Below are positions 2,888 to 64,000 of a stretch of DNA of 64,000 bases, piece by piece (position 1 is the first letter of the stretch; each line of letters begins with the position of its first letter). The notes beneath the pieces are model-generated. The model was not told the origin of the DNA. It saw only the letters and a program-made list of their open reading frames with translations, and searched no databases. The translations under genes and the position numbers were made by a program. Source of the stretch: a virus (lineage: Duplodnaviria; Heunggongvirae; Uroviricota; Caudoviricetes); IMG/VR virus record IMGVR_UViG_3300024999_000035, positions 64,001 to 128,000 of that record, one strand, 5' to 3'.

Positions 2888-3934
2888 TTACCTCTCGTCA
2901 TTCAAATAAGAATTGATCAATTCTCGTGTTTTGAAGAGATATTTCTCTCCATCTGTTCCAAACTCGAATCTCTCATTGATTGAAATGTAATCGTCTCTGG
3001 TTAATTTATCTTTTTCGCCTTTTTCTTCCTTCAATTTTTTAGCATATTCAATAATAGCAGAAAAATATAGGTTGCTAATGCTAATATATGGTTTTCCTAA
3101 CCATTTTTGAATTCGTTGTATTCTACTAGCAAAGAATTGATAATCTACTTTCCCATCTTTGTTCTTTCCTGGAGTTCTAAAAACATATTCAGTTTTATTG
3201 ATTATTCTTCCCCTATCCGTACTTTCATATACTCCATCATCATTAGGTTTTGTCTTTAATCCATTGTTAGCAACATAGAAATCTTGATCAATAACCTTTT
3301 TTAGTAAATCTAACGTGTAATCATCTACATCCATCCATCTAAATTCACCATTGTTTTTAGTAAGATATAATCTCTTTTCTTTCCAACCGATATCTTTAAC
3401 TTTTAGATTAACTAGTTCCTCAAGAGTATTTCCTTTTTCAGTACGACCCCTGACCCCTAGATTTGGCAATTCAATAATTGCTCTGTCCTGATAATTTACT
3501 AATTTAGATTGAAACTCTCTACATTCTGATAGAGGAATATAGGAATTTTCTTTTGCTTGAATATTGATATACGATTTATAGTTACTAGTAATAATGGCAC
3601 TGAATCTATTCTCATTGTGTCTCACTAAATTCTTAGGGGATATACAAAAGTCAACATAAGTTTTTAATGGAGATAAAACAGTTTGAAATGCGAACTTGTT
3701 TTTGTTTTTATACTGAACAATTAACAATTCATCTCTTTCTTCTGTATTAAAGTTATAAATTGGTTTTCCTAATTTAACTTCGAAATCATCAGCTAATTGC
3801 AAAATATAACGATAATAACTTCTAGTTGATTTTAGTTGCTTTTCTAAAAATTCTTCCTTAACTTCTGGATCTACTTCGAATACTAATTTTTCTTCAGTTT
3901 GTGATTCGTTATTAATAATTTCAATTTTAGTCAT
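2888..3934 (-). CDS. Integrase-fold lysogeny repressor, SPbeta MrpR/YopR (SroF)-like
   Basis: Tyr-recombinase-like core (DRAIIELPNLGVRG...ELVNLKVKDI) but H-x-x-R replaced by SNLYFS; similar in size to YopR; directly downstream of a YopQ-like gene as in SPbeta. Confidence 0.75.
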   Translation of the reverse strand: MTKIEIINNESQTEEKLVFEVDPEVKEEFLEKQLKSTRSYYRYILQLADDFEVKLGKPIYNFNTEERDELLIVQYKNKNKFAFQTVLSPLKTYVDFCISPKNLVRHNENRFSAIITSNYKSYINIQAKENSYIPLSECREFQSKLVNYQDRAIIELPNLGVRGRTEKGNTLEELVNLKVKDIGWKEKRLYLTKNNGEFRWMDVDDYTLDLLKKVIDQDFYVANNGLKTKPNDDGVYESTDRGRIINKTEYVFRTPGKNKDGKVDYQFFASRIQRIQKWLGKPYISISNLYFSAIIEYAKKLKEEKGEKDKLTRDDYISINERFEFGTDGEKYLFKTRELINSYLNDER

Positions 3935-3949
3935 TTTAAAGCATCTCCT

Positions 3950-5335
3950 TTAAATTAATTTTTGAAAGAACTTATATAGATTTGTGCGCGTTGATTTTTT
4001 CATATCTGATTCTTTACTTAATTTAATATCATCCCAGAATGAATTTTCCATACTGAAATCTATTTTATCTAAAATCTCCTCAAGTATATCATCCCACTTT
4101 TTAACACCATATAAACGTTCAGATAATGCAATATATCCTGCAAACATATTTTTATGGTTGATATAACTTACCTTCTGAGTTGCTTCAGGATGCTCCATAA
4201 ACGCCTCAACATTCAACCCAATGATATAATCCATAACATTAGCAATATGGTTTGCAATGGGTTTTGTTTGAAGTTTGTTGGTTAATTTATCTCCGTAACA
4301 CTCTTCAATAGCTATAGCCAATGTTGACTTCTTTGCCATACCAAAATGTTCAAGTTCAAAATGTCCAATTTCTTTATCATTGTCCTTTATTTGATCTGCA
4401 AATTCAGAAGTATCAATATCTTTAATTGCATCTACGACTACATTGCCAAGACTAGCAGTATCCATATTCTTAATATGCTCTTGCTTCATTTTTTGTTGCT
4501 TATTGATTTCAACCATATATTTTTGTGCCCTAATTTCACTGTAATTTATTACAACTAATAGCCAATTAAATTGTATGTCAGGGTTAATTGCGTAGGCCAA
4601 GGAGTTTCCGACCTTCCGGTGCATACCGTCCACAAGGTTTTTAGTTCCTGATATAATAGACAGATCACCAGATTTTTCATCATAATATATTTCATCTGTA
4701 CCATCTTTAAGAACATTTACTACTATAGTAGTTGGGAATTGATCTCCCGAAAGAACACCATCTCTAATTTCTTTTGCATTGGTTTTGTTTAAATGTATTC
4801 GTTTCATTCCATATACATCAATAAGTGGGTCACGTTGTGTCTTAAAATTATAGATAAATTCATTCCCTGCATCTAATTCAGCGAATTGTTTTCCAGACAT
4901 ATATCCAGAATAAAATCCAGGAGCAATTCTGTTCATTTTAGGGAAAACAATAACTTCGTCTTTTTTGTCTACTTTCTTTTCAAATTTATAATCATTTAAG
5001 TTCTCAATCTCAATTTCATTAAAATAATTTTTGGGATCAATTCTTAATATCTCTTCAATTTCCCCCAATGATTCTTTATCTTCTGACTCTTTATGTGTCA
5101 ATGCATTATAAATACTCATAGTAAAGATAAATAATATTATTACATCTTTACTTTCATCGATATCCAAGGTAGATAATTCTCTGTTTTCATTTAGAATACC
5201 GATTGCTAAACTACCCTTCATATTTCTCTTATCAAATTCTTCTACAATTATTTTCCTAACCTTGTCATTACTTGAATACTTCTTGATTAACACATTTAAT
5301 TCTTGAATTAACTCTACTGATTTTTCTTTTAACAT
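3950..5335 (-). CDS. DGQHR/DndB-like ParB-fold protein, SPbeta YopQ (SroE)-like
   Basis: FPTTIVVN...LVDGMHR...INKQ motif; about 460 aa; ATG at 5335 follows GAAGGAG RBS (the track start at 5344 overlaps the RBS). Confidence 0.75.
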   Translation of the reverse strand: MLKEKSVELIQELNVLIKKYSSNDKVRKIIVEEFDKRNMKGSLAIGILNENRELSTLDIDESKDVIILFIFTMSIYNALTHKESEDKESLGEIEEILRIDPKNYFNEIEIENLNDYKFEKKVDKKDEVIVFPKMNRIAPGFYSGYMSGKQFAELDAGNEFIYNFKTQRDPLIDVYGMKRIHLNKTNAKEIRDGVLSGDQFPTTIVVNVLKDGTDEIYYDEKSGDLSIISGTKNLVDGMHRKVGNSLAYAINPDIQFNWLLVVINYSEIRAQKYMVEINKQQKMKQEHIKNMDTASLGNVVVDAIKDIDTSEFADQIKDNDKEIGHFELEHFGMAKKSTLAIAIEECYGDKLTNKLQTKPIANHIANVMDYIIGLNVEAFMEHPEATQKVSYINHKNMFAGYIALSERLYGVKKWDDILEEILDKIDFSMENSFWDDIKLSKESDMKKSTRTNLYKFFQKLI

Positions 5336-5388
5336 AAATATCACTCCTTCACATTATCGTCACAATATCTTAACATTTATATAATATA

Positions 5389-5498: not shown

Positions 5499-5897
5499 TT
5501 AGATTACACCAGAAGAAACAAAATTTTGTGAGCATGGACACATTCTAGTTTTTACCGTTCCACAATGATTTAATAATAATTCTTTCTCATATACAACCAA
5601 ATTATCACCTTGGAATACTATATGTTCATCAATAATTTTTTCTAAATTAAGACATTCTATATGAAAAGTAAAATTAAATTCTGCATCAACTTTCTTTTTA
5701 TTTAAGAAAACTAAAGCTTTCTCAGCATGTTCTTTGGTCGTGTATCCCCTTGCTTCTTGGGAGAATGTCTTAAATGCTATGTATTGCCATTTTTTATTAC
5801 TCGATTTGCCTATGCTTGATCTATTAGAAAAATTACCATTTTGATCCTTAATAACCCAAATTGATTGTTCATTTTCTTCTTTTTTACAATTTTCCAT
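5499..5897 (-). CDS. Hypothetical protein
   Basis: 132-aa ORF with AAGGAG RBS. Confidence 0.7.
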   Translation of the reverse strand: MENCKKEENEQSIWVIKDQNGNFSNRSSIGKSSNKKWQYIAFKTFSQEARGYTTKEHAEKALVFLNKKKVDAEFNFTFHIECLNLEKIIDEHIVFQGDNLVVYEKELLLNHCGTVKTRMCPCSQNFVSSGVI

Positions 5898-5977
5898 ATA
5901 TTCACTTCTCCTTTAATTTTATTTTATGGAAATTACTACAAATTGTATTTTGATTCTCTTAATACCTCCTTGTTAAT

Positions 5978-6006
5978 ATTATATCATGGGAGAAATTACT
6001 GTTCAA
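5978..6006 (-). promoter_or_regulatory. sigmaA promoter
   Basis: TTGAAC-17-TATAAT with extended TG. Confidence 0.65.
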
Positions 6007-6103
6007 CAACTATCATAACAAAAATAGTACATATGTTCGACATTTTATTCTAAATTGTTCGTCTGTCTTGATTAATTGTCTAAGATACCACATTACCATT
6101 ATA

Positions 6104-6916
6104 TTAATAACCATTAATTCCATTTGAATTAATCATATTCTCATATACTTGCAATTTAATCTGTTCTTTGCACAATAGATTGTTAACAAACATCAGCAAT
6201 AAAGTTATGAAAATTATTGGAATACAAATTATCCCAATGATAATATACAATTTTTCTACAAATTGTATGTAAATTAAAATATTGTTTCTTTCTATTAATT
6301 TTACAACATAAGAAACTAAAGAAATTCTAACCAATACTATTAAAAGTAAACTATATATAAAGAATTTGTTTTTAACTATGGAATTGAATAAATCAATATG
6401 AACTGTACTATTCCTTCTAATTATGACAAATGAAATGACACATAAATATAATACTCTCGCAGGAAGACCTAATAGAAAATTATAGCATACATTAGCATTA
6501 AAGAATGATATTGGTCTATCTAACAATGAGGCAATTAAGGGACAATATGAGTATTCTACTATTCCTACAATAACAAAACCTGAGATAGTGAATATTGCTG
6601 TTTTAATGATTAATAAGATATTAATGTCGTAACTGTTGTTTATAACTATAAATTCCATGAGTAAAATCATAATAATCATAGTTGAAATCATCATATTTTG
6701 CTGGGGTACAATTATTATGTATTTTAGGATATTTATCATTATGGATACAGGAAGTACAGCTAATGTAATCCATTTTAGGCTTTTATTCCACATGTAAATG
6801 TCTAGGAGATTATTTAGTTTTAGGAATATTAGAGTTATTATTGCTATGAATGCTTCTTCTGGAATTGATGTGAATATTATGTTTAGGAGGATGTGGGGTA
6901 GGGATAGTGTTTGCAT
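6104..6916 (-). CDS. Polytopic membrane protein resembling an AgrC sensor domain without kinase (copy 2)
   Basis: About 7 hydrophobic segments over the whole 270 aa; IPE motif shared with 8148-8963; no H-box or HATPase; agr context. Confidence 0.6.
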   Translation of the reverse strand: MQTLSLPHILLNIIFTSIPEEAFIAIITLIFLKLNNLLDIYMWNKSLKWITLAVLPVSIMINILKYIIIVPQQNMMISTMIIMILLMEFIVINNSYDINILLIIKTAIFTISGFVIVGIVEYSYCPLIASLLDRPISFFNANVCYNFLLGLPARVLYLCVISFVIIRRNSTVHIDLFNSIVKNKFFIYSLLLIVLVRISLVSYVVKLIERNNILIYIQFVEKLYIIIGIICIPIIFITLLLMFVNNLLCKEQIKLQVYENMINSNGINGY

Positions 6917-6956: not shown

Positions 6957-7022
6957 ATAGATGGTCATTATAATAAGAATGATAAAGATTAGTTAATAAT
7001 ATATGATATAATGACCATCTAT
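6957..7022. promoter_or_regulatory. 16-bp perfect inverted repeat overlapping a TATAAT box upstream of sensor copy 2
   Basis: ATAGATGGTCATTATA (6957-6972) / TATAATGACCATCTAT (7007-7022), 34-nt spacer. Confidence 0.7.
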
Positions 7023-7043: not shown

Positions 7044-7835
7044 TTACTTTCCAGTTTGTAGTATTAATCCACGATTACTACTTTGAAGGTGACGGATACG
7101 ACTTTCCTCTTCTTTATTTACATATTCATTGAGTTTATCTAAAAATCTGCTTACAGTAGATTCTTTAGCTTTAGTGTGTACCATACCAGCCTGTTTCATA
7201 ATGCCAATCGACACTTGCCTCATTATCTCGTCATTTGCCTCTCCTAAGAATCTTATGTGGCCATCTATAAGCAAATCTCTTTTTGTAATCACTCTCATTT
7301 GCTCTATGAGAAGTTCTGATTCTCTTTCTAATCCACTCTCTCTACCTATTCTTATATGCATGGGCATAGCCTTACCGAGTTTAGAAGATATTGGAATTGC
7401 CCAAGTTATTGTAGCCATGTTATTTCCTATGTTGTTCTGGGCAATACAGGCGGGTCTTATACCCCCTTGGATAGAATCTACAAAGTTACCAAAGTTTACC
7501 ATATATAGACCGCCCCAAAATGGTTTTATGTCTTTTAAATTGATATCTCCATCATTTATATCATAACCACAGGCGATCCTTAATTGATCAAAAGATACTC
7601 TTAATTCTGATCCATTAGCAATTTTTTGAAGAAGCCAAAGTTCTGGATATGTAGTTATTTTTGCATTAAAGATATTAACAATGTCTTTAATAGAATTGGG
7701 GATACCATTTTTTCCTGCAAATTCTGAAATGGTGTTATTACCAACAGCTATTTTTACTAAATTTGCGAGTTTCTTAAAATCCTTTACCTCATTTGATTTG
7801 ACTACCTCGATATTCTTTTTTGTATTGAAAAACAT
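7044..7835 (-). CDS. XRE-like HTH fused to a PemK/MazF endoribonuclease domain
   Basis: N-terminal TISEFAGKNG...PELWLLQKIA HTH; C-terminal GGLYMVNF...QGGIRPACIAQNN...AIPISS...EQMRVITK PemK motifs. Confidence 0.8.
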   Translation of the reverse strand: MFFNTKKNIEVVKSNEVKDFKKLANLVKIAVGNNTISEFAGKNGIPNSIKDIVNIFNAKITTYPELWLLQKIANGSELRVSFDQLRIACGYDINDGDINLKDIKPFWGGLYMVNFGNFVDSIQGGIRPACIAQNNIGNNMATITWAIPISSKLGKAMPMHIRIGRESGLERESELLIEQMRVITKRDLLIDGHIRFLGEANDEIMRQVSIGIMKQAGMVHTKAKESTVSRFLDKLNEYVNKEEESRIRHLQSSNRGLILQTGK

Positions 7836-7900
7836 ATTAATTCATCCACCTTTCTTAATTGAGTAAATATAAATTTTTTAAATGTTTACTTTATATTACT

Positions 7901-7929
7901 ATAATACATTACGGTGGTGAATATGTCAA
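7901..7929 (-). promoter_or_regulatory. sigmaA promoter of the HTH-MazF gene
   Basis: TTGACA-17-TATTAT. Confidence 0.75.
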
Positions 7930-7954: not shown

Positions 7955-7985
7955 TCAAAAGGAGAGAGTATAAAACTCCCTCCTT
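7955..7985 (-). terminator. Intrinsic terminator after agrD
   Basis: AAGGAGGGAGT-tttat-ACTCTCTCCTT, 11-bp stem with one G.U pair, followed by U residues. Confidence 0.7.
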
Positions 7986-8002: not shown

Positions 8003-8122
8003 CTACGCGATACATTTAGGGGTTTTTGGTTGATGCCACACTGCAAAACAAGGCATTGTAGCTGCATGCACAGCAATAGAAGCAATAATTACCAAACCAC
8101 TTGCTAACATTTTATTTTTCAT
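8003..8122 (-). CDS. agrD: AgrD cyclic autoinducer propeptide MKNKMLASGLVIIASIAVHAATMPCFAVWHQPKTPKCIA (missed by the ORF track)
   Basis: Hand translation, 39 aa; GGGAGGTGA RBS at 8128-8136; hydrophobic leader, C-x4 ring CFAVW, HQPKTPK tail typical of clostridial AgrD; agrB nearby. Confidence 0.92.
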   Translation of the reverse strand: MKNKMLASGLVIIASIAVHAATMPCFAVWHQPKTPKCIA

Positions 8123-8147
8123 ATTTTTCACCTCCCTTGCTTTATAA

Positions 8148-8963
8148 TTATTTGTTAAACAGACAATCATCTTCGCTAGAAGGTAGATTATAAGCCTGTT
8201 TTACACTATTTAAAAGAGAAACGCAATGATTTATTATTAAATACAATCCAGTTATTACAATAGAAGGTATTAAATAAGTTGTACATATTATAAATACTAT
8301 CTGTCCAATTAATGTATTCATAATATTTAAAAGATTATTAAAAAGAATTAATTTTAGTATACATATTTCAAATATTAATAATGATATCATAGTAATTACA
8401 ACAAATCTTTTGAAGAAAATATTTACGCATATATATTCTAATATATTAATTTGAATTTTTATTTGTTTATATGTAATTATAAATATAATAATTACAAATT
8501 CTATAATTTTTGATGGGACTGAACAAATTAAAACTAAATAAATATTTTTAGATATTTCTTGATAATTTAAATTAAAAATGTAAAACCAAACTGGAGCAGT
8601 TAATAAATCAATTGCCATTAAACTTAAATACAATGGAATAAACCTTATTAATAATTTTACTTTTAGATAATTAACTTCTTCAATTTTTGTCTTTTCAAAT
8701 ACGTAAATTGATAAAAAAAATAACAATATTAAATTAATCAAAGATGCAACATTTTGTTGAATCGCAAATCCATAAAGAAGTATACTAATTATTAAAGAAG
8801 GTGGGATAATTAAAATTAAATACCATTTTATATTCTCTTTAAATCTATAAATGTCCAAGAATTCGTTTTTTTTCATAAATTTAATTAATAATATTACCAT
8901 AAATATCACTTCAGGAATCGCTATAAGAAAAAAGTTTATAAATATTTTTACTAAATTATCCAT
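8148..8963 (-). CDS. Polytopic membrane protein resembling an AgrC sensor domain without kinase (copy 1)
   Basis: 271 aa, hydrophobic throughout; co-transcribed with agrD; no kinase domain. Confidence 0.6.
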   Translation of the reverse strand: MDNLVKIFINFFLIAIPEVIFMVILLIKFMKKNEFLDIYRFKENIKWYLILIIPPSLIISILLYGFAIQQNVASLINLILLFFLSIYVFEKTKIEEVNYLKVKLLIRFIPLYLSLMAIDLLTAPVWFYIFNLNYQEISKNIYLVLICSVPSKIIEFVIIIFIITYKQIKIQINILEYICVNIFFKRFVVITMISLLIFEICILKLILFNNLLNIMNTLIGQIVFIICTTYLIPSIVITGLYLIINHCVSLLNSVKQAYNLPSSEDDCLFNK

Positions 8964-9052: not shown

Positions 9053-9673
9053 TTACGTTGTTTTATTACTTTGTTTAATTGAATAATATAAAACCATTCC
9101 GGCAAATAACTTTATCAATATATCACCTGGACTCATTATTACATAAAAAATATCCCAAGTATCGGTTAAAAATATTAATTTTGTCGTGTAGTTACCCAAT
9201 ATATGAAAATCATTAAATACTGACGCTTTTTCAAACATATCAATCTTTGAAAACCCAATACTAATGCTGTTGCTTGGAAATACAGGCATTTTACCATTAT
9301 TATAAAACATAGCTAATTGATTTAATTTAGATCCTACTGTCGCACATAATGCCCCTATAATAACTGGTGATGTAAGCGATGTAATTAATTGTCCATTCTT
9401 TTTTATGTTAATATTTTTAAATACAGAAATATTAATTAGTTTATATTTAATAATTAACAATATGTAAAATAGAAATGTAACATCTTTTATACAACTACTA
9501 TATTGTAAAAACCAATATTCTCCGTGAATCATCAAATACACAATATATATGTTCAGTATACAAGTTAATATAATTGAATAAGCACTCCAATGTCTAAATA
9601 TTTTAAATATTTCAGACCATTTATATCCTTTGAATTTTGCAACCAAACAAGCAATAACTACTACTTCGATCAT
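9053..9673 (-). CDS. DUF5317-family membrane protein
   Basis: NNGKMPV...H......TKLIFLTD...SPGDILI motif; ATGA overlap with the agrB stop. Confidence 0.75.
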   Translation of the reverse strand: MIEVVVIACLVAKFKGYKWSEIFKIFRHWSAYSIILTCILNIYIVYLMIHGEYWFLQYSSCIKDVTFLFYILLIIKYKLINISVFKNINIKKNGQLITSLTSPVIIGALCATVGSKLNQLAMFYNNGKMPVFPSNSISIGFSKIDMFEKASVFNDFHILGNYTTKLIFLTDTWDIFYVIMSPGDILIKLFAGMVLYYSIKQSNKTT

Positions 9674-10356
9674 ATATGTCCTCCGTCAATCCATCTGAAA
9701 AATTTTGCTCCAATAGGTGTAATTGTAGATATTTCGAGCAATACTCCAAAAAAGACACTTGTACTAATTATTTGATGTGAATTTAAAAGCACAATACTTA
9801 AAAAACAACAAACTGTAACAAACAATATACTTCTATGCTTTTTTATATTACCATTATCACAATCTTTATCTGATTTATCTTCTCTTTCTTGAGGAGCATA
9901 TTTATAAGCTAAATATATACTAATTATATATCCAATTATTAAATATAAGTAATCTATATGTATTTGAGTTACTATCCATCCTAAAGAAAGAAAACATATT
10001 ATCATTGCCCCAAAACATTTATTAAAGGTAGATAAATGGGAACCGCCAGCAAAAACTCTTAAAACAGTGAAAATAGTCATTACAATAAAAACCGGAAGTG
10101 AAATACCTAAACATAAACATTTCGCTATAAATAAAACAATTAAATATTTAAGTATCTCACTATAAGCAAGAGTAATCCCGTTTTCTACCAATTGAAAGAT
10201 ATGCTCTGCATTAGTTTGTATATCTTTTTTCCTATGTGTTTTTATTACGTTGTTGACTTTTGAATAATGATCTTTATTAAATACCTCATTAATTGTATTT
10301 ATATTGATATTAAATATGCTTAAAGTTTTTTTAGTTAAAAAAGTTATGAAATCCAT
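9670..10356 (-). CDS. agrB: Accessory gene regulator B (AIP-maturing membrane peptidase)
   Basis: LRVFAGGSHLSTFNKC catalytic His/Cys motif; YKYAP; multiple TM segments. Confidence 0.92.
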   Translation of the reverse strand: MDFITFLTKKTLSIFNININTINEVFNKDHYSKVNNVIKTHRKKDIQTNAEHIFQLVENGITLAYSEILKYLIVLFIAKCLCLGISLPVFIVMTIFTVLRVFAGGSHLSTFNKCFGAMIICFLSLGWIVTQIHIDYLYLIIGYIISIYLAYKYAPQEREDKSDKDCDNGNIKKHRSILFVTVCCFLSIVLLNSHQIISTSVFFGVLLEISTITPIGAKFFRWIDGGHI

Positions 10357-10381: not shown

Positions 10382-10777
10382 TTAATTTGCATAAGCAACA
10401 TTATTTTTAGTTTCACCAAGATCAAACTGTATTCTCAATGCATCTGAAATCTTGCTCATTATGTAATTATCACAATGACCAATTTTTTCCACAAACATAC
10501 TTTTATTTAAAAGTTGTACTTGCTCGCAAAGTGCTACAGAAACTATCCTTAATCCAGTATCGGTTGAAATTTCCACGTGGGTAGGAATATATCGTTTTGA
10601 TTTTGTTGTCGTCGGCACCGCATGAATCACACTAGAATACTTACAACACATTGGATTCGCCACTACAATCATTGGACGCATAAAACCACCTTGGATAGAC
10701 CCTACTCCTTCACCTAGATTTACCAGAAAAATATCTCCTCTTCTTATCTCTTGTGAAACTTTATTTACTACTTGCAT
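10382..10777 (-). CDS. mazF: PemK/MazF-family endoribonuclease toxin
   Basis: RRGDIFLVNL...QGGFMRPMIVVAN...VPTTT...ALCEQVQLLNK; no MazE-like ORF adjacent. Confidence 0.88.
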   Translation of the reverse strand: MQVVNKVSQEIRRGDIFLVNLGEGVGSIQGGFMRPMIVVANPMCCKYSSVIHAVPTTTKSKRYIPTHVEISTDTGLRIVSVALCEQVQLLNKSMFVEKIGHCDNYIMSKISDALRIQFDLGETKNNVAYAN

Positions 10778-25347: not shown

Positions 25348-26971
25348 AATAAAACACACTCCTTTTATAATACTTCCGTAATATCTTTAGATTCATTTTC
25401 CCAACTAGATAAAGGTCTAATAATAAATCCATATTTATCTGCCAACTCAATTTCTAACATATTGCCTGTTTCACTAACATTATAACGACTAAAAGTATTT
25501 TTATCTAAACCTAATTCTACTGCAATTCTGTTGGCATCTGCCATAGATTTTGCTTTACAAACTATTCTAAATTGCCATCTTGAATTCATTCCCCATATTT
25601 CCCTTGCTTTTGGCAAATGCTTATTTAAAGTAGTTCCATAATATTTATCTTTTTTCATTGCTCTTCCTCCTTCAATATACTAATATAAAAACATCAACTT
25701 ATCGTATTTTACTATTTTCATAAAATTTCTTTACTGCATCTTTCTTTAATTCATTTCGCCATCCTTCACAATTTTCATATTCACAATTACAAGGAAAGAC
25801 TTCATAATAATCATGAAATTCTTCAAGAGTACATTCGTTGGACTCCATGCATTTACTAATAAACTCTGCTTCACTAATTTTCATGTACACACTCCTTCTT
25901 TCTTAATTCCATCCAACCATTTACCTAATCTACTTTCTCTGACGGATAAAACACATTCGCATTTTCTTAATTTGCTAACATTTTTTTAATCCATAATGAT
26001 ACTACAAACATTAATTAGCTTTGATGAATAGTCTACTGTACCAAAATCTAGTAAAGTTAAAGTTGTTTCATCGCTAGTGTCTATGACTTTTACAATATAT
26101 TTCTTATCCATTCTGTATAATCTATCTCCTTTCTTCTCACTGATGACCAATTCTATAATATATACCAAACATTATAATTTCAGATACAGTAAGTTCAAAT
26201 AATTTCTTTCTTCCAAAGCTTGGTCTGAAAGGGATATTATTAAATATTAAAAACTCTTTTAATTGTATTGCCGAATAGTCTTTGAATATTTCAATTAATT
26301 CTTGTTCGGACATATTCATCAACTCAATTGTCTTTAACATATGTACTCACTCCTTTAATTTTTAACTCATAATATAAAAGCAACATTTTGTGCTAATTTA
26401 AAACTCTTCTAGATCACAATTTTCTGGTATTTCTAATTCATGCAATGAAAGACCGTCTCCGCTACCAATTTTAAAATTAAATTTTTTGCACCATATATCC
26501 CAATTTTGATTCCCTCTATTCCACTCTGTTTCATGATAAGGACACTCATAACAACAATCAACTTTAATAATCTTCATAAATATTCTCCTCTCATTATAGA
26601 TTAAAAATATAATTTGTTTGGGTTATTTATCTTCATATTCAATCAATATTTTTATCTTTTCTCCCTGTCCTACAATCCTAGAATAATAATCAAGTTTACC
26701 ATTTCTAATTCTCCAATCATGAATGTGGTCTTCTAAGAATACTCCTTTAAGATGTTGTAGATAAATATCATCCAAAGTTTCAACTGATTTACCCGTCATA
26801 GGATTAAATTTACATGAATCCCACATTGTCTTTTCATCATATAGCGTCCACAATCTAATAATCTTTATTGAATTAAGATCAATATACGGACTTAAATCTA
26901 TTTGATAATCAGTTATAATATCAATTATCTTTCGCATATGTATTACCTCCTTCGTTTAACTCCATATATAC

Positions 26972-27007
26972 ATTATAAACCATCCTGCAAGAGATTACAA
27001 GATGGTT
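26972..27007 (-). promoter_or_regulatory. sigmaA promoter overlapped by an inverted-repeat operator
   Basis: TTGTAA-17-TATAAT; IR AACCATCCTGCAA-N4-TTACAAGATGGTT. Confidence 0.7.
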
Positions 27008-46423: not shown

Positions 46424-46458
46424 ATCATTACCTCCTCAGATTTACTTTCTCTATATAC

Positions 46459-46496
46459 ATATTACACCACTTCACAATGAATTGCAAGATGGTGTA
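46459..46496 (-). promoter_or_regulatory. sigmaA promoter overlapped by an inverted-repeat operator
   Basis: TTGCAA-17-TAATAT; IR TACACCACTTCACAA-N4-TTGCAAGATGGTGTA. Confidence 0.65.
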
Positions 46497-53389: not shown

Positions 53390-56300
53390 TAATATTCAAT
53401 CTCTAAAATGCGTCAAAAAATTACAAATATTTTAAACTAATTAAAAGTATTATTTCCTAGTATTTGATTTATGATAATCTGTAATAATTTGATACTCTTC
53501 TTGATAGCCAATCTTGTATGCTTCATCTAGATTATCAAAATCATCACCAAACATTGTAAAATCTCTCGCTCCATTGTCAGAAGGATCACTACTGTACCTA
53601 TACACAATAGTTTTTAAGTCTGTACCACAAATATAAAAATCTACCATTCTACCATTCTATCAAGTCGCAATGCACTTTTAATGAAAATACAGTCATCACA
53701 ATCATGTTTGTATAATGGTTTCTTATCTTCATTCATCCCTGCTTTTATTAAATTATTCTCAAATTCCTCAATGCTAATGTTCTCAAAATGCTCTTTAATT
53801 GCTTTTAATCGTTCAATAGTATTCATTGTATATTATACTCCCTTCAATTCCCAATCATTTAACCAAGTATCTTCAGTTCTCCGTTCTTCAAATTCTTCAG
53901 TAAAATTATAATTATCCTCAGTCATAATATATCCTCGATTATCCATGTAAATATATTCATCATTTGAAAAGTATCTATGAGTTACTTTATGCCCTTCGCC
54001 CATCGCAATATATGCTTCTTGTTTAGTCATTTAATTTTCAGTCCTTTCTATTATATGATAAGTTGCATGTTTGATTTGATTACAAATCCTTCAAATAATT
54101 ATTTAATAAATACATAAAAGTAAATACTCTATTTTTATCATGAATTTCAATTGTAAACTGCTTCTTATTATCATTGTAACTTTTAAAAACTTGTTCTTTA
54201 CTAAACCCCTCACAGTAAATAGGATTTATAGTTTCATCTTTTTCAAACAATCCCATAAAGTCAACGTTAATTTCATTCTCTGAATCAATTGATATTTTCC
54301 AATTATGAAAGTTATTTCTGATCACCATTGATAAGCAATATCTTTTTAAATTAATCTTATACACTGGTAATTTAATTGATTTAGAAGTATGAGTATTAAT
54401 GACTAGAACTGGATTGGCACTAAGTTCTTCATATCCGGCTTTAGAATTTTCATAGAATAGTTGGTTAATAGTATCTCGCACAAAACATATTTGATCTGAA
54501 AACGCTTGTTTATACATCATTTCTTCTTTAGGACTGTTTACCCTTACCCAAGTAGTTACATCTACTGGCAATTTTTTGGAATAGAATTCTTTAAATTCTT
54601 CAACTATTTCTTCAACGTTTTTGTCCTCATATTTACTTCTGTTAAAATCTAGATTATATCTTTCCATATCATCTAATAGATAATAGTTGTTTACTGACAT
54701 TATTATCATTTCCTTTCATCTTAAGCGTTTAAATCACTAGTTTTATTCATCACTAAATCACGATATTATTTTTTCATTTGAATAAAATCATCTAGATTAA
54801 CTGATTTTTGCTTATCACTAAATCTTAATTCGTATCCTTTACTTTGTAATTTGGCAAATTGTTTCATAGCAAATTTAAGATCATCTGATAAATGAAAAGA
54901 ATATTCTTCATTATCAATACTAACGAGCAATCCAGTCACTAAATTGTTATTGATATCATAACCTTTAGCATAATTGATTGTTACTACTTTTACTCATAAT
55001 AAGCATAACCTCCTCAATTTTGTTTTGCTTACGCTGGCTCCATAGAAGGATTTAAACTTATCAGAAGTGGCTTAAATCCTCTTAGGATGTGTGTAGAAGA
55101 ATATATCTAAACACACACATACCGATAGTTAAATCCAAAAACATGTTCTCTCTTCACTTTATTTTTCTGTTCAAGGTTGCTAAGTGCTTCTAGAGTTATT
55201 TCCGCAGATAATTTAAAGTAAACAACTATGTCTACACTATCAATATTTTCGTGTTGATGATTTTGGATATATTTAAAAAGAGCATTTTCTAAATAATGTT
55301 GCTTTACCATATGTTTTATCTTTCCTTTCTAATTTAGAATTGATACAACGAAAGAGTGATTTTATTTAGATTACTTTTTCTGAAATATTTCTGACCATTC
55401 GTTAGTTGTACAAATATACTCTTCTCTTTCATTATTAAAAGCGTGAAAATTAAAATCTTTATCAAAATGACCATGATAAATTTCTCCAGATATAAAACCA
55501 TATATAGACTTAATATAAACAAATTTAATCACACAAATCAATCCTTCCTTCTCTCAAATAAATGTTATATTTCCAAGGATTATTTAAGCAATCTCTTAAA
55601 CTTTTGGTTTATTATATCTCCTGATACAATCCTGTCTATTCCTGATTTATCTTTAATTAAATAATCACAATCTCCTATAGATTCGGCATAATAAATACTT
55701 CCTTGTTCAAACATTAAGGTCAGTCCATTTTTTACATCAATCCTAGCTTTTAACTTAAACATTTATATTCCTTCTTTCTTTAAACAGCTTAAAATCTGCC
55801 TTTTATGCTACCTCATCAGAATTGATAATATCTTCAATCGTATGTCCATATGTGTACTTAAATGATTCCGGTTTACTAACTTTAATATTTTTACCATTCT
55901 TTAATTTAAACAAAGTCTTTTCAATCACGCAATATCCACCACATTTATTAAATTGACTTTCATATCCGTATGATCTTATCTCTTGTATATTTGTATCTGA
56001 TGATTGAGAAATTGCTTCTAAACTTCTGAATACTCTACTAAAATAAACTGGTAAACATAATACATTTGCTCTAAATCCTGCCCAACTTCCATCATCGTCG
56101 TTTTCTGCCCATCTCTCAATATTGATAATAATATTACGATTGCCTTTTAATATTTCTTTAAACCTGAATAGAGGATTTTTAATTTTTGAAAGATATGTAT
56201 AAGCATTAAATTGATCTTCATCCCATGTTCCAAAGCCTACTTTCTGAATAGGATTTCTAAAGAATAATCCTTTTTCAATTCCTTCTTCAGACTTGATAAC

Positions 56301-56854
56301 AAATTTCTTATAGTTTTTTACAACATTTTCAAACATTTAAATGCACTCTCCTCTTTCTAATATTTATTTCTTGAGTTAATTATATTCGAGTTCTGGATAA
56401 ATTGCAATAGAGTTTTGAGTAAATATAAAAATAAAGTTGGAATACAATATTGAATCTGTTATACCATAATTTGGATGTCAGTATTAACCATTCCAGTCTG
56501 AACATTCATTAATATTAAAAATAAATTTAAGTTTGTGGTTCTTGAGACATGATTTATATTCAATATGATCACAGTCAAGATTAAGACAGAACCAACAAGA
56601 ATGTTTTATTTGCAGTTGTGTCATTGTTATTCACATCCTTAGATTAATACTGTTTCTCACTTTTGGGAAGTGATTAGTCCATATTTTTTAAACTCTCTAA
56701 TGTCCGTTATTCGGACGTTTGAAAAGTCCTTGATCGAAAATACGAGTTCTGTTATATCAGAAATTACACCAAATAAAAATAACATTTTATGGTAAATATT
56801 GAATTGTAAAAACCTAGTGTAGTAAGGGTTTGAGGGTTTGCGTTTTGTAATTAA

Positions 56855-57562
56855 TCAATAATATACTACTGCATCTTTAAATTTACCGTTTTTTAATCTT
56901 CTGTAAAAAGTCATGTGGCAAATGTTTAAAATTTCACACCATTCTATAATAGTATGTATTTCCCCATCTATTTCAATGTACTTCTTTTTATGTTCAAATC
57001 TTTTCGGTTCTATTAATTCTTCATTGCTCCAACCCCATGACATTCTATTCAAGATAATATTTCTAGTTAATCCAGAAATTTCTGCCCATTCTGTAACAGT
57101 ATGAGTCATGCCTCTAATTGTAATTAATTTGGTTTCATTAGTAAGAAGTTCACTTGTTAGTTGATTAAAATCCCATCCTGCATGATACCTTTGTATTATG
57201 GCATCATATGGTATCCCACTCTCCTCTGACAACTCTTTTAATTTTTTAACAACTCCATTGATTACAATTCGTACAGGAGGTTTAGAATTTTTAGCTTCTA
57301 TTTTAGTCTTTTTACTAACACACCTACAATTATTTATATCATAATTACCATTTGGGTCTTTTCTCTTAATGTTTTTATCGTCAGTATACCCATTATTTAA
57401 CGCCCACTCGAAAAATTTATCCCTATCATTTAACCATTCTTCGCAAATCCTAATTCCCTTTCCTCCGTAATATTTATAATTTGGTAAATTTGTGTTATAA
57501 CAAATTGATTTCATATTAATAAACGCTCTTCTCAATCTTTTGGTGATATTTTTGTTTTTCAT
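56855..57562 (-). CDS. Degenerate HNH-type homing endonuclease with C-terminal DNA-binding repeats
   Basis: YGGKGIRICEEW...F.EWALNNGY...GNY..NNCR; the usual IDRID reads IKRKD; three I(N/R/D)GxxxTxxEW-type repeats; ATG at 57562 after GGAGG. Confidence 0.75.
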   Translation of the reverse strand: MKNKNITKRLRRAFINMKSICYNTNLPNYKYYGGKGIRICEEWLNDRDKFFEWALNNGYTDDKNIKRKDPNGNYDINNCRCVSKKTKIEAKNSKPPVRIVINGVVKKLKELSEESGIPYDAIIQRYHAGWDFNQLTSELLTNETKLITIRGMTHTVTEWAEISGLTRNIILNRMSWGWSNEELIEPKRFEHKKKYIEIDGEIHTIIEWCEILNICHMTFYRRLKNGKFKDAVVYY

Positions 57563-60120
57563 TTTAAAAATCATCCTCCAATAATTTATATAAATAATCT
57601 TTGCTAATCGCATAAACCCACCTGTACAATTATGTCTGCTGTTATATTGAAATTGTTATACAGCATGGGCTTAAATCACTAGCACAGATTATTTATATAA
57701 ATTTAAAACCTATTGAAAAATGTTCTGTACCTGCTTCACAATCCCCTTCAGGAACAACATTCATTTTATCAGGATCGAAAGTTAAATCATAATCTTCTGA
57801 ATCAATTAATAAGTTAATTACATTCCCTGATATATTATCTCGAATAGCGTCACCAACTTGAACAGAAAATCCATTTTCCCATGTTGCATAATATCCAAAT
57901 TCATAAGCATGTACTGCAATTTCTACAGGTTTGTTTTGATTCTCTTTTAACCAATTATAAAATTTATCATGATTTGACATTAAGATCATTCCCTTCTTCA
58001 CCCATTTTACTATTGATAGGAGTTATAGAATAACTACCTATTTACCTTAAATCATTTGCTTGATTTATGTATTTGCTTATTTCAATTCCTTCCTGATTTG
58101 TTACTCCATTTCCAATAATCTGAAAATGTTCTTTGGCAAATTCTTTTGTAACATCTAAAGAGATAATTTCTTTCCTGCGTTTGAATAAAATAATTATACC
58201 ATTGTTCCCTTTAGTTGCATAAAGCTCAGATCCATTTATTACATTTGCCCATGTAAGATGTATATCTTGATTCCTTAATGATTCTGGTGTTACCTTTTTT
58301 ATAAGTTTAATGTTATAAAGTTTCTTCATTATCTTATACCATCCTCCTGTTATAATGATACCACCTAGCAGAGTCCTTATAAACCCTGCCAACGCTCTGA
58401 GCTTAAGGTCTTTTTTGACTGGCTCAGACCAGTGTTATTTGTTATTTACTTTTACTCTTTTTGGTTTTACTTTTAAAGTTTCCATTTTCATCATATGATT
58501 CTGGATTTGCTCCTGGTACATCCCATCCAAACATTGAACCTGTTAACATTGCTGATGATTGAGCTTTTGTTATTCCTAATTTTTCATTTATTTCATCAGG
58601 GTCCATTTGCTCATAACAATTATCAAGATTGTTATAACCTTTTTGACCACGTTGTAATAGAATAGTCTTTCCACTCAATGGTTCTTTTGAGTAACAAAGT
58701 TCTGGCAATCCTTCAAACATATTAATGCACTCTCCTTTTAATTTAATTATACTCCGATAAAGCTTGCTTTTCGAAGGTACTAGATATAACTTCTTCCTAA
58801 TTTTAATCCAATAATAAAACAATTCATAAATGGTATTTCTACCGTTTCAAAAACATTTTTCTTTTCTGCATAATCATATACACAATAAACTAAATCTTGT
58901 TTGATAACTTTAAATCTTACTATGCCTGATTCTATAAGATCCTTATTCCACTGTTCAATCATTTTAAAAACTCCTTTCTTAAACCCCAAGGAAATAATAG
59001 TTTTATTCTATTGAAATCGGTTGTTCAATATATCCACGATAGATAGTAAGTCTATTTCTTTCCTCTTCTGCTGCCCAATGATTCAATCCTTTTGAAATGT
59101 ATTTTTGTTTTTTCAATGTTCCATCCTTGTATAGATTTGATTTTAGATGGTCAAAAGTCCCATCTTCTCTTTTTATAAAATATCTAACGGACTTATATAG
59201 AATCCTTTACTCAACAATAGACCATATCTTACAATTTAATGATTCTAATACAATATCTCTAAGTATATTATGCTCGAATCCATTTACATTGATATATACA
59301 AGGTCTTTAATCTTATCTTTTGGGATATTGCCTAGAGTTTTTTCAATCCATTTAATTTCTCCTTTGTTTGAAATTGCTTTCTTGCTTTGATCTTTGTATA
59401 ATTCCTGTATTACTTCAAATACATCAAGATAGGGAACTCCTTCAACAGTTAAAACTAATAAAATTTCTTCGATGATAAGATTAATGTCATATTCCAAATA
59501 ATTTGCAATAACCTGTTGGTCGAGTTCGTTAGTATAATGACTTCCTTCCGGTATATCACCATCATTGAAAAATCGATAATAAGAACGACCAATTTTTCTG
59601 TATTTTTCTTTGAGTTCTTCATTAATTGGTAGATATTCAACTAAATCGCCATCAAGTTTTTCAGCTAGAAATGTTTGATATTTACCATTTGAATTCCAAT
59701 AGGTATTTTCTAATTTCAACATAATAATTCCTCCAATTAATTTATTTGAAATATCGTCAACGTCAGATACTAAATTGTTATGCCGATACTGACATTATAC
59801 CACAACTAATTCCCTTAAAGCATGTTGTTTGCTAACCTTGTGCGTTCCATAACCATTCTTTGATAGTCGATGTTTATATGGTTTATCATTAAATAATTCT
59901 GCATTATATTGAACTTGATCTCTGGTAAAAAGCCCAGTTAAAACTTTCCTTACATTTTGTCCTTCAGTCCATAGATATATCTTGATAAAAGCCCTTTGAC
60001 CATATTTCACAGAGAATCCTTTTCTCTCCCATTGAACATAAGTACATAGATTATCACTATCAAAATTAATATTTCTAGTGCTTATTTCAAGTGCAATAAT
60101 TTCTTCATTTGTTAGTTCTG

Positions 60121-60278
60121 ACATAATTACTCGGCAACCTCCTTAATGGTTTTGTTATTGATAAAATGAGATATTGCCTTGATAACTTATATCCCTTAAT
60201 TTATACATGGTATAATCTAATAAGATATTTTTTATATTAAGATTATACCATGTATCCACAAATTATGCTGCTACTTTT
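60121..60278. repeat. Duplicated intergenic regulatory cassette, copy 1
   Basis: Shares ACATAATT..TCG.CAACCTCC, AAAATGAGATATTG.CTTGA.AA, CCTTAATTT.TACATGGTA.AAT, ATTATACCATGTAT and CACAAATTA.GCTGC.AC with copy 2. Confidence 0.85.
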
Positions 60279-60730
60279 TGTTTCCATTTAAACATCCATT
60301 ATAATTATCTAATACATGTAATTTGTACTTTTTACAAAATCCCATATATATTTTGCTTTTTGAATTCTTACAATTTTTACATTCATAACATTTCATGTTT
60401 AACGCCTCCTATAGTAATTTAATAACTTAATTGTTCTTTAATAAATTTTTGGATTTCTCTTTCTGAAAAATGGTATTCTTTTCTTAGATGTTCAACAACT
60501 TTCATGGTTTCTCGATACTTCTTATTCCATGAATAGTTATCTATTTCCTCTTGTGAACCGCCTGTTAAAAGTTCTATCTCATTTTCATAATATCCTTTTT
60601 CAGTTTTAATCATTATTAATCACCCTTTCACATGCAATTAATTTTTACTTTTACTGACATTATACCATAAGAATTGCTTACCACAAAATAATATTATGAT
60701 TAGATTTCGATGTATTTATGTTTACATTTA

Positions 60731-60905
60731 ACATAATTGTTCGACAACCTCCCAACCTTCATTGTTATAGCAAAAATGAGATATTGACTTGACAATTTGT
60801 GTTCCTTAATTTTTACATGGTACAATACAATTTTCAATAATTATATTTACATTTTATGCATTATACCATGTATTCATAAGTTACACAAATTAAGCTGCAA
60901 CCTTG
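60731..60905. repeat. Duplicated intergenic regulatory cassette, copy 2
   Basis: See copy 1. Confidence 0.85.
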
Positions 60906-63900
60906 GATTTCTTTGACTTTTTATCCTTCTTAACTTTACCAGAAGCAACAATAACCACGTCAGATAACTTCATAATCTTAGTGACTGTCCGGTTGTTCCA
61001 TAATGTCAATCTCACTTCTGCATAGGGTACAGGTTCAAGGTCTGAATAATATGCGATATTGATAATTTCACCTTTAAAGAAGCGATAAACTATCTTTTTG
61101 CCTAGATATAAGGAATTAAGAATTGAGGCATTTAGAGATATATTTTGGGAGTTTTCAGGTTTTTGCATAATGATTACCTTCTTTCAAATTTTATTTTAGG
61201 ATTTTATAATGGTATAGAATATGTAAGATTATTTAGAAATATGAGCAATTAGTTTTTCAAAGTTTTCAAAAGTAAATGGAATTTGATGTACGTCACAGAT
61301 ATTTTTAAATTCTTGGAGTAATTTTAATTTGCTCATTGTTTATTTCCTCCTTTATTTATTTTAGGATTCAAACATCCTCTAAACCGCCTAAACTCATCAA
61401 GTGTACATTTTATCTGTTATAGAGTTTAGAAGGCTTAGAGGGCACTCGTGGCCCTAATATTTAACGGGTCATGTCTCTTACTCTGAAATATTCTCTTGCT
61501 TCCTGCTCTGTGTCTGCTTTAATTTTACCAATAATTTGATTTTGTTTCGCCCATGCTTCATTGTCTGTCAATTTAATATCTATACAAGTTGTTCCCATGC
61601 TTACCACTTCTGCTACCAAAAAGAATGTCTTTGAACCTTTGTCTATTTTTAACATTTGTTATTCCTCCTTCTAATACAATGAAATTATTGTTTGCTAGGA
61701 TTTAGATTTGTCTTTGTCTCCTGTTCAATATTTTCGCATTTCTTCTTTCATTTTGATAAATATATTCTCCAATACTAATTTTTGCGTCATGCGAAGATCC
61801 AAGATCAACACCATATTTATAAAAAGAATCTGTATAAGGAAGGAAATATTCAAATTCACCTGTACCCTCAGTGTTTTTTCTCCATCCACTAATTAGCCAA
61901 CCATTTTTTGATGCTTTAATTTCATATCCATATTCTTCCTTGTTATAATCTTGATAACAATCGATCTCACTTTGAAAATGCCCTTCGTGTGTTTCATAAA
62001 AATAATTTGACATTCTAACCACTCCTTTAATTAATTTTACCTCGAATCAATACACCATAATTGTTATATAGATTATAGGCTTTTGGTGTATTGAATCCAA
62101 ATTCAATTAATTAAATACCATAATTTCCTGCAAGATATCCTAATGCTTCTTCTTCAGTTTTCCCGATATATTCATGTCTGTTATGAGTCCCATACCAATA
62201 ACCAGAATAACCTAATGGTAATGAGTCATCATATCCAGGCCATGTTTGAGTATTGGCCTTTGATGTGAAACGAAGTTCGGTTGTTTTCCCTCCGATGTTG
62301 TAAGTTTTGATAAGTGTAGCATCTTCCATTTTTCATTACTTCCTTTCTAATTAATTTCTGACCTCAAACCGTAACACAAATTTGAATTTGTTATAGAGTA
62401 TTTTGTGTTACAGGGTTTCAATTCAGAAATTAAAACTCTTGATAAGATACTTCAGCAAGATAAATTCCTGCTTCGCTCTCAATTCTGAGATCATCGGTTA
62501 CAAATAAATCAATTTCTTCGGCAAGATATTTTTCAATAACTGGGATATTCTTTTTATCGAGAATCGTGTACCCCATTTCTTCTAGTTCTTCTAAGGAGTA
62601 AAATCTTCTTTGCATTATACATTCCCTCTTTTCTAAATTGATTTAAAGAGTCCATGATTAAAATTTGGGTTCGTGTTATACAGATTATACCATTTTTAGC
62701 AAAGTAAATGTAAGTTTCATTTGATTAGAAGATCCTCTGAATTAAAGAAGTCAATTAATGCAGTTCTAATCTTTTGAGCTTCAAAAGTGTTATGCTTCGC
62801 CAGTGAAAGTTTAGTAAATAATTGTCCGGCAATTTCTTTAGTTGAAAGAACGGAAAATAATGATTGTTTGATAGATTCAGTTTGCTCATCATTTAAAGTC
62901 AAATTAATATGCATGGTGTAACCCTCCTTAATTAATTAATTTAGGCTGAATACTTTTCCAGATACCATTTAGGCCACAATTTAGACATCCATTCTTTCCC
63001 TACTTCAGCGCATTGCAATCTGATTAAATTTACTTCTATTGCAATAGGTTTCGCATAAAATCTCATGGTGTGTCCGTTATAACCATCTGGAAGAGTTATA
63101 ATTTTTCTTTCTGGTTCTGAGCAAGATCCATCACTATGTACGCTTAATTTTGTCATGTTTTATACTCCTTCTAGTTTATCATATTTTACTTTAATAAACT
63201 CCAAAATATCCATAACTATTATTATACTTTTGTTATAGATATTCTAGGCATCATTAAAATAATTATTTATATTATTCCATATAATTTAGATGTTTTTCTG
63301 AATGTTTTTAATACTCCACCGTTTGTTGTCCAGTGACTTTTAAAACTAGAAAAATCTGAACATAGGCGAACGGTTATAGTCTTTGGTGTTTCTTTGACTA
63401 TTTCAGTTACATCAAATAAGAAACCGTCTGATTCTGCTAATTGAGTCCCGACCTTAATTTGGCTTGCTGTTATGATCATATCATTCATTTGTTAACACAC
63501 GCTCTTTTATCTAAATTATGTAAATAACATTCAGTAATAGAATTTTGAACGTCACAGAAACCCGTTCCGTACCCACTTAATTTATTGCAAACATCTTCAA
63601 AGTCTTTTGTGTTAACTCTTCCTGCTCGTTTAATTCTTTCAACTCCTAACTTAATATAACCAATTCTTTCAGATTCTTTTTGCTCTGCATTGTTAACCTC
63701 ATAACCTAGATAATTACGTTCTTTAAGAGCTTTTAAACACTCATTAACTGAAGTATAACCCATTTCAAAAACTGTAGTTTGATAAGGAGTACCAAAAGGA
63801 AACCCAATAGTATTGCATACATTATATTGAGTAAATTCTCCTGTTTCAAGATCAATAACTTTAATCTCATTCCAACCATGATTTTTATATTCCTTTACGT

Positions 63901-64000
63901 ATGTTTTGATCATTTAAAACACTCCTTTTTGATTTTATTCGAGCTTAAATGCTCTCCGTACCGCACTATATTATATTTGAATTTTAATACATTACAGCAC

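Follow-up and report, generated by a model that had tools for sequence, protein, structure and literature searches.

We describe a phage gene that joins a helix-turn-helix (HTH) domain of the XRE type to an EndoA-type MazF domain and lies within a cassette of agr-type signalling genes. The gene occupies positions 7044-7835 of the window, a 64,000-nt stretch comprising bases 64001-128000 of a 178,304-bp IMG/VR virus record (28% G+C, complete by CheckV). Every gene treated here lies on the minus strand, and the promoter- and hairpin-like elements discussed below are read on that strand as well. We propose, with a probability of roughly 0.45, that the fusion protein is the intracellular output of the cassette, namely an endoribonuclease or regulator that binds DNA as a dimer and would bias the phage between lysis and lysogeny. 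MazF enzymes, phage-borne agr genes and the SPbeta-type switch are each known already; their combination in this cassette is new.

Domain structure and conservation of the HTH-MazF fusion

The sequence-only reading of this DNA had described a 263-aa fusion of an XRE-type HTH with a PemK domain, and the window does encode such a protein, followed by a C-terminal helix. The MazF/PemK domain spans residues 108-216 (7188-7514); the PemK_toxin family PF02452 matches residues 108-214 with an E-value of 2.8e-14 and 53.7 bits (cut-off 23.1). The closest solved relatives of the fusion, and of the stand-alone (solo) MazF encoded upstream in the same cassette, are EndoA/MazF from B. subtilis and MazF from S. 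aureus. A Foldseek search with the AlphaFold2 (AF2) model of the fusion found 4mdx at an E-value of 3.8e-10, with an rmsd of 1.6 and a TM-score by target of 0.87. In PHROGs, both proteins fall in families annotated as "MazF-like growth inhibitor", and both carry the "QGG..RP" signature that had been noted previously, as SIQGGIRP in the fusion and SIQGGFMRP in the solo protein.

The catalytic residues of the Bacillus enzyme are Arg25 and Thr48, and in MazF7 of M. tuberculosis a Ser is functional in place of the Thr (PMC7354611). The equivalent residues of the fusion are Arg127 and Ser150. We counted these positions in 51 fusions and 30 solo MazF proteins. In the fusions the first position is Arg in 43/51 and His in 8/51, the latter all from one subclade, and the second is Ser or Thr in all 51. 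All fusions also retain the PTH and EQ motifs for RNA binding, and all 30 solo proteins have kept the catalytic Arg.

Residues 17-92 (7560-7787) are predicted to form a divergent XRE-type HTH of five helices. Pfam gave no HTH match in the first 100 residues of the fusion itself, a sequence search of the N-terminal domain against the PDB gave nothing meaningful, and the only match to the HTH region by sequence was a weak one to PHROG 18248 (E 0.005). The AF2 model of the N-terminal domain alone, computed from a 14-sequence alignment, shows five helices with a pLDDT of 83. VIA-align placed the XRE regulator 2ofy (Z 9.0) and SinR (Z 8.4, rmsd 1.7 over 61 residues) among its matches; the other fold matches include C.AhdI, ImmR, CapH, ComR, PrgX, the 434 repressor, HipB and HigA. 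Taken over VIA-align and Foldseek, the structural matches are almost exclusively of the XRE/Cro/cI type, with Foldseek probabilities of 0.9-1.0 yet E-values above 0.1. Three remote profile relatives (P0065, P0068 and P0074) have a Pfam HTH_3 domain over the matched stretch. Because of the XRE-type fold matches and the HTH_3 domain of these relatives, we consider the original call of an XRE-type HTH plus PemK to be right.

The C-terminal part, residues 225-258 (7062-7163), is predicted from AF2 and the alignments to be an amphipathic helix with the conserved motif ..ESTVxRFLDKLNEY... We considered whether this helix is a hidden MazE-like neutralising peptide and rejected the idea, as neither phmmer against the PDB nor a profile hidden Markov model (HMM) of ribbon-helix-helix (RHH) MazE proteins revealed any similarity.

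A pseudogene or a chance open reading frame (ORF) could likewise be rejected because the protein is conserved over ~50 homologues. The 34 close homologues have lengths of 257-272 aa throughout. A profile of the HTH domain, run against 1.84 billion cluster representatives, recovered this close family together with more distant HTH-PemK clusters, at least five of them further clusters at 50% identity (P0057, P0058, P0062, P0066 and P0072). The distant fusions P0057 and P0058 were not found in IMG/VR, and no near DNA match was found in the phage collection. A maximum-likelihood tree groups all fusions into one moderately supported clade (82/75) and the solo proteins into a separate one; the chromosomal EndoA clade includes neither, a placement that is weakly supported (86/40). 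Judged from sequence and predicted structure, the fusion is one conserved HTH and MazF polypeptide with a catalytic dyad.

The fusion belongs to a phage cassette of two types

Related cassettes were recovered from 6 loci in IMG/VR (L003-L008) and 17 loci in metagenomes (L097-L113). In the window and in L003-L008 the gene order is solo MazF, AgrB, DUF5317, TM1, AgrD, fusion and, in some cases, TM2, which we call type 1. In L097-L113 (type 2) the order is solo MazF, DUF5317, TM1, AgrD, fusion, AgrB and, again optionally, TM2; type 2 fusions are only ~33% identical. In the recovered loci the fusion was always found inside the cassette and never elsewhere. Based on these comparisons, solo MazF, AgrB, DUF5317, TM1, AgrD and the fusion make up a fixed phage cassette that exists in two diverged and rearranged types. 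Within the HTH domain it is the predicted recognition helix that differs most between the types; over the whole fusion the C-terminal region has diverged furthest, with 18% identity between types compared to 57-66% within them. One metagenome contig (L099) carries two HTH-MazF fusion genes (3282-4064 and 5773-6552) with AgrB and a TM protein between them, which suggests stacked cassettes.

To compare inheritance across the cassette we correlated pairwise-identity matrices over 15 loci (rho). The fusion co-varies with AgrB (0.84), TM1 (0.81) and DUF5317 (0.51), and shows no such relation to solo MazF (-0.18), TM2 (-0.07), SroE (-0.15) or SroF (-0.06), the last two being products of downstream genes described below. 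No other HTH protein shows co-variation with the core of the cassette. TM1, in turn, co-varies with AgrB, the AgrD type and the fusion. The same grouping is seen in the split between type 1 and type 2, which is clear in AgrB, TM1 and the fusion, partial in DUF5317, and missing from solo MazF, TM2 and SroF.

The sequence-only reading had suggested, among other roles, a dominant-negative MazF mimic. A dominant-negative or otherwise specific partnership between the fusion and the solo MazF is not supported by these data. The two matrices are uncorrelated and the alleles have recombined freely; in L099, for instance, the solo MazF is 88% identical to that of the window and the fusion only 32%. Every cassette thus has a solo MazF, but its alleles are exchanged freely. 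This speaks against its being a cognate or dominant-negative partner of the fusion, and on the present alignments such a pairing is disfavoured.

Position of the cassette relative to lysogeny regulators

Two genes for lysogeny regulators follow the cassette on its downstream side (2888-5344), one SroE/YopQ-like (3950-5344) and one SroF/MrpR-like (2888-3934). The SroF/MrpR (YopR) homologue matches MrpR_N_CB (PF22822) above the cut-off with an E-value of 5.3e-13, and the SroE homologue was identified by tblastn to yopQ of SPBc2 (E 8e-9, query coverage 80%). The cassette is found upstream of SroE and SroF in every locus whose sequence extends that far. This holds for both types, and in some loci the SroE and SroF genes downstream of either type are 85-95% identical to those of the window.

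In SPBc2 the order of genes is aimR, aimP, a stem-loop, (aimX) and yopM to yopR, and the tandem order of SroE and SroF is the same in both phages. As the fusion gene follows a terminator-like element behind the pheromone gene and lies upstream of sroE-sroF as in SPBc2, we place it in the slot of the arbitrium output.

Expression signals and repeats around the fusion gene

A hairpin followed by a U-run, which resembles a terminator, lies behind agrD (7956-7984; dG -17.2, z -3.5). It precedes a promoter of the sequence TTGACA-17-TATTAT (7929-7901), which is followed by a leader of ~60 nt and a ribosome-binding site (RBS). The earlier prediction that the fusion has its own promoter is in good agreement with this arrangement. 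The order of terminator, promoter and leader before the fusion gene is kept in 17 related loci of both types, in which the GC-rich hairpin, TTGACAT and the -10 box are the conserved elements.

Between the stop codon of the fusion gene and the RBS of TM2 we found a perfect inverted repeat with 16-bp arms and a 34-nt loop (6957-7022; dG -19.7, z -4.9). In L003-L006 the arms are kept and the loop is variable, and L005 shows a compensatory change from G-C to A-T. The repeat has no U-run and is therefore not a plain terminator. Repeats at 26978 and 46463 had been named together with this one. Neither site matches its arm within 3 mismatches, and only a short ACCATCT core is common to all. The regions 26965-27005 and 46450-46490 do contain promoter-overlapping inverted repeats that are similar to each other (..ACCATCTTG.AAT..) and lie upstream of other minus-strand genes; the 7-nt core is all that relates them to the 6957-7022 repeat.

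The word ATAACA is unevenly distributed in the genome. The genome has 92 copies on the sense (minus) strand, and 54 of these fall within genome positions 120000-136000 (window 56000-64000 and beyond). Elsewhere the word occurs ~1.5 times per 8 kb on the sense strand and 3.7 times on the other strand, i.e., it is ~2.4-fold rarer on the sense strand. The fusion gene itself contains two copies.

The solo MazF and the absence of an antitoxin gene

The solo MazF gene (10382-10777) encodes a 131-aa protein of the EndoA type. PF02452 matches it with an E-value of 3.6e-20 and 72.6 bits (cut-off 23.1), and EndoA in the PDB with an E-value of 1.4e-16. Its catalytic Arg is Arg34, Thr56/57 corresponds to Thr48 of B. 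subtilis, and the protein ends in ..NNVAYAN. An intact MazF gene close to agrB had been reported from the sequence, and indeed its stop codon lies 25 nt ahead of the agrB start at 10356. The 140 nt upstream of the gene contain an RBS and no promoter-like site that could be recognised by eye.

That neither MazF gene has an adjacent antitoxin ORF was borne out both here and in the relatives, and it extends to the genome as a whole, in which no MazE was found. We saw no small ORF of the MazE type beside the fusion or the solo gene, either in the window or in the related loci, and PF04014 and PF01402 are absent across the 178-kb genome. The RHH-MazE HMM was built from the RHH-type MazE genes that adjoin chromosomal mazF in clostridia; run against six-frame translations of the genome and of six related loci, it gave no match (best E-value 1.7). 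The adjacent, co-transcribed MazE gene of a classical type II MazEF pair is thus missing.

The missing antitoxin is not unique to this phage. Among chromosomal EndoA-type mazF genes of Clostridia, a recognisable RHH MazE adjoins only 11/80 (L009-L088). In 8/8 chromosomal loci that we inspected, mostly from Lachnospiraceae, mazF directly follows the alanine racemase gene alr after a gap of ~60-260 nt, mostly ~80-110, and no mazE ORF lies between the two. Solo MazF-like genes also occur in 97 phage records, and the two that were inspected show no annotated antitoxin. In one related locus (L096:1444-1812, G001:C1:39139-39447) a third, degenerate PemK-like ORF without the catalytic RP motif lies ~4 kb upstream of the solo MazF.

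Among the C-termini of P0001-P0048 and of the MazF ORFs in L003-L111, a similar short tail is found on most fusions and most solo MazFs, irrespective of the cassette type. It has the form ..NN(V/I)AYA(N) in the solo proteins (window 10382-10408) and ..Q(R)VA(S/F)(L/F)A in the fusions, e.g., ..QRVASLA or ..RQVAFA; it is missing from the chromosomal MazFs and from the window's own fusion. The tail resembles C-terminal degrons of the ssrA type, and it may serve as a degron or as a docking tail. If it is a degron, intrinsic instability could explain how these toxins are carried without an antitoxin.

Signalling genes of the cassette

The AgrB-like peptidase/cyclase (9670-10356, 228 aa) matches PF04647 with an E-value of 8.2e-24 and NF002210 below the cut-off of that model. 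The next gene (9053-9673) encodes a 206-aa DUF5317 membrane protein (PF17248, E 3.4e-12), which is found in every cassette; we found no mention of this family in the literature. TM1 (8148-8963), which has a promoter-like site at 9024-8996, is a polytopic membrane protein of 271 aa without a kinase domain and is our candidate for the sensor of the autoinducing peptide. It had no match in Pfam, NCBIfam or PADLOC, and all 21 TM1 homologues are 258-278 aa long, none with a kinase domain. An ESM feature match (0.91) to a cluster named "putative sensory transduction protein kinase" is taken as a lead only. TM2 (6104-6916, 270 aa) is a paralogue of TM1; some relatives lack it, and it shows no co-variation with the core of the cassette.

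The AgrD propeptide (8003-8128) has ~41 aa and the core ..MPCFAVW/HQPKTPK... It scores 27.9 bits against TIGR04223 (quorum_AgrD, cut-off 19) and is therefore considered genuine. Across the loci we found ~10 different five-residue cores, the ring residue being Cys in some and Ser in others; those of the window, L003-L008, L098, L099 and L102 include CFAVW, CLAAW, SAFLW, SMVVW, SWVIW, SFAFT, SMFFT and SWFFA. The variable cores look like phage pherotypes that are tracked by the identity of TM1. With so many peptide variants on a fixed architecture, the loci offer a natural set of alleles for tests of specificity. The AgrC kinase (PF14501) and the LytTR domain of AgrA (PF04397) are both absent from the 178-kb genome. 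In several relatives a Cys-rich, Zn-ribbon-like protein of ~530 aa is encoded between solo mazF and agrB (L005:3850-5454, L006:3833-5434 and L008:2154-3692; split in L004); it is not present in the window.

A proposed role of the fusion as output of the cassette

The idea that MazF activity promotes lysogeny, from which the sequence-only reading had started, holds for the host MazF in phi3T, where AimX inhibits the enzyme (PMC10769878; bioRxiv 10.1101/2025.11.27.690993). Given this precedent, the conserved fusion of HTH and MazF domains with its dyad, its co-inheritance with the cassette and its position at SroE and SroF, the suggestion of a DNA-tethered ribonuclease acting in the switch is reasonable. 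We picture it as follows. The fusion, as the intracellular output of the cassette, would dimerise through its MazF domain, as MazF proteins do, and thereby bring two HTH domains onto DNA. It would probably repress its own or neighbouring promoters, and such autorepression could cap its level and stand in for an antitoxin. By cutting specific RNAs it would bias the choice between lysis and lysogeny, as the host MazF does for phi3T. The signal would enter via TM1 and the AgrD peptide and be passed on by contact between proteins, not by phosphotransfer. The solo MazF would be a second endoribonuclease, co-transcribed with agrB and independently exchangeable, and no cognate partner of the fusion.

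Several results weigh against this assignment. None of the 185,579 species genomes searched contained a relative of the fusion, and in 8/34 close homologues the catalytic Arg is replaced by His. The full-length AF2 model does not place the domains relative to each other with confidence (pTM 0.53). As a possible operator for autorepression we considered an inverted repeat in the leader, the 6-8 nt arms of which exceeded shuffled sequences in only 2/15 loci. Nor is the link to signalling uniform: within type 2 the fusion follows TM1 with a rho of 0.74, but within type 1 the value is 0.17 (n=15), and fusion identity within type 1 does not follow the AgrD core. The global correlation therefore partly reflects one deep split between the types plus linkage. 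From the overall pattern of co-variation we conclude that the fusion belongs to the signalling core, yet is not tightly tied to the pherotype. Finally, when motif avoidance was used as a guide to the cleavage site, UACAU and ACA were not depleted in the sro genes; depletion was likewise not seen for these words in the cassette genes or for AUAACA in either set, in a test whose positive control was also negative, since UACAU is not depleted in yopM-yopR of SPBc2.

Other functions have to be weighed against the same observations. The fusion could combine toxin and antitoxin in a single, self-contained chain, or serve the prophage in defence or takeover, with an HTH that derives from a former XRE-type antitoxin. 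Such an autoinhibited or autoregulated protein would fire at superinfecting phages or shut down the host, and its proximity to agr would simply reflect a shared moron region. The antitoxin HTHs of HipB and HigA are indeed among the structural matches, the fusion has its own promoter and terminator in the manner of a moron, and the 97 phage records with MazF-like genes (no antitoxin being annotated in the two inspected) show that such genes travel in other phages as well. Furthermore, a passage of PMC10865869 cites Cui et al. (2022) for the restriction of arbitrium phages by MazEF. However, PADLOC found zero matches among the cassette proteins, the fusion stays inside the cassette in all recovered loci, it has a fixed position in the lysogeny-control region, and it co-varies with AgrB and TM1 and not with equally close neighbours. 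We regard this explanation as unlikely. We find it rather improbable that the MazF domain is a decoy for which catalysis is irrelevant, one that binds host MazE and so frees host MazF, or forms inactive heterodimers with MazF of the host or the phage, the HTH then tethering or autoregulating the decoy. There is a precedent in phi3T_93, which binds MazE and releases MazF to promote lysogeny (PMC10769878), and both the His variants and the lack of a MazE in the phage would fit. Still, 43/51 fusions have the catalytic Arg and all retain the Ser/Thr and the PTH and EQ motifs, no co-variation with the phage's solo MazF is seen, and many chromosomes of Clostridia (mostly Lachnospiraceae) have mazF after alr and no mazE, which would leave nothing to titrate in a host of that kind.

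The fusion might itself be the peptide receptor, similar to the RRNPP regulators, if an AgrD-derived peptide or a small phage protein entered the MazE-binding groove and switched DNA binding or RNase activity. The groove of MazF naturally takes antitoxin peptides, neither a kinase nor a response regulator is found in the cassette, and the fold matches include the HTHs of the peptide-sensing ComR and PrgX. The type split that the fusion has in common with AgrB and TM1 also speaks in favour of a receptor. The failure of the fusion to track the AgrD core or TM1 within type 1 speaks against it, and it weakens the related proposal of a ligand-gated ribonuclease in the sequence-only reading as well. 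TM1, which does co-vary with AgrD, is the more obvious receptor, and we know of no report that cyclic agr peptides are taken up by cells. A receptor function of the fusion is therefore highly doubtful.

Beyond the role of the fusion as cassette output, the data would allow a more specific picture, namely a new kinase-less phage communication system in which TM1 senses the cyclic agr-type peptide and passes the signal by contact to the HTH-MazF protein, which as repressor and sequence-specific RNase would be the decision effector in clostridial SPbeta-like phages. Stated in this full form we consider it improbable. The two MazF paralogues may also be readers of the strand-specific AUAACA word that crowds the early operon of the phage.

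Comparison with known systems

The EndoA/MazF enzymes of B. subtilis and S. aureus have the same fold as the phage proteins, are their closest relatives in sequence and have the equivalents of Arg25 and Thr48 and the PTH and EQ motifs in common with them. In contrast to the systems paired with EndoAI/MazE, the phage has no MazE, and one of its two copies has an N-terminal XRE-type HTH and a C-terminal helix. Most phage copies also differ from chromosomal MazF in their C-terminal ..VA(Y/F)A tail. The "MazF-like growth inhibitor" genes of PHROG 1936, e.g., those of Lachnospiraceae phages and the Lactobacillus phage ATCC 8014-B2, are solo genes without an annotated antitoxin whose products are 36-46% identical to the solo MazF; the two records inspected have no annotated HTH, and neither gene lies beside agr or sro genes.

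EzeT (cited in PMC10865869) and CapRel SJ46 are single-chain or cis-regulated toxins in which the extra domain is the neutralising antitoxin. Like them, the fusion combines a toxin and a regulatory domain in one polypeptide and has no separate antitoxin gene, but its extra domain is predicted by modelling to be an HTH of the DNA-binding type.

The C. difficile phage phiCDHM1 also carries agrB and agrD (PMC3901668). Whereas phiCDHM1 has a full agrC kinase, the membrane proteins of the phage described here lack a kinase domain, and two MazF genes and a DUF5317 gene are present in its cassette in addition. Should the fusion prove to be the switch effector, the cassette would be a first case in which agr signalling does without a two-component output. 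It would also illustrate how a toxin can be managed in the absence of an antitoxin, e.g., by autorepression or a degron-like tail.

The closest parallel in organisation is the arbitrium system of phi3T and SPbeta, which occupies the same slot upstream of the yopQ and yopR homologues; this comparison is one of position, and AimR was not searched for. In both, a pheromone gene is followed by a terminator and an output gene, and a MazF enzyme takes part (PMC10769878). The signal differs, being a cyclic peptide of the agr type made by AgrB and AgrD instead of AimP, and so does the source of the enzyme, since phi3T relies on the MazF of its host whereas here the MazF homologues are encoded by the phage. 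Arbitrium modulates host MazF in SPbeta-like phages of Bacillus, and related phages of another host group fill the same slot with an agr-type signal and MazFs of their own. If the fusion is indeed the switch effector, RNA cleavage of the MazF type would be a general and portable core of the lysis-lysogeny decision of the SPbeta type.

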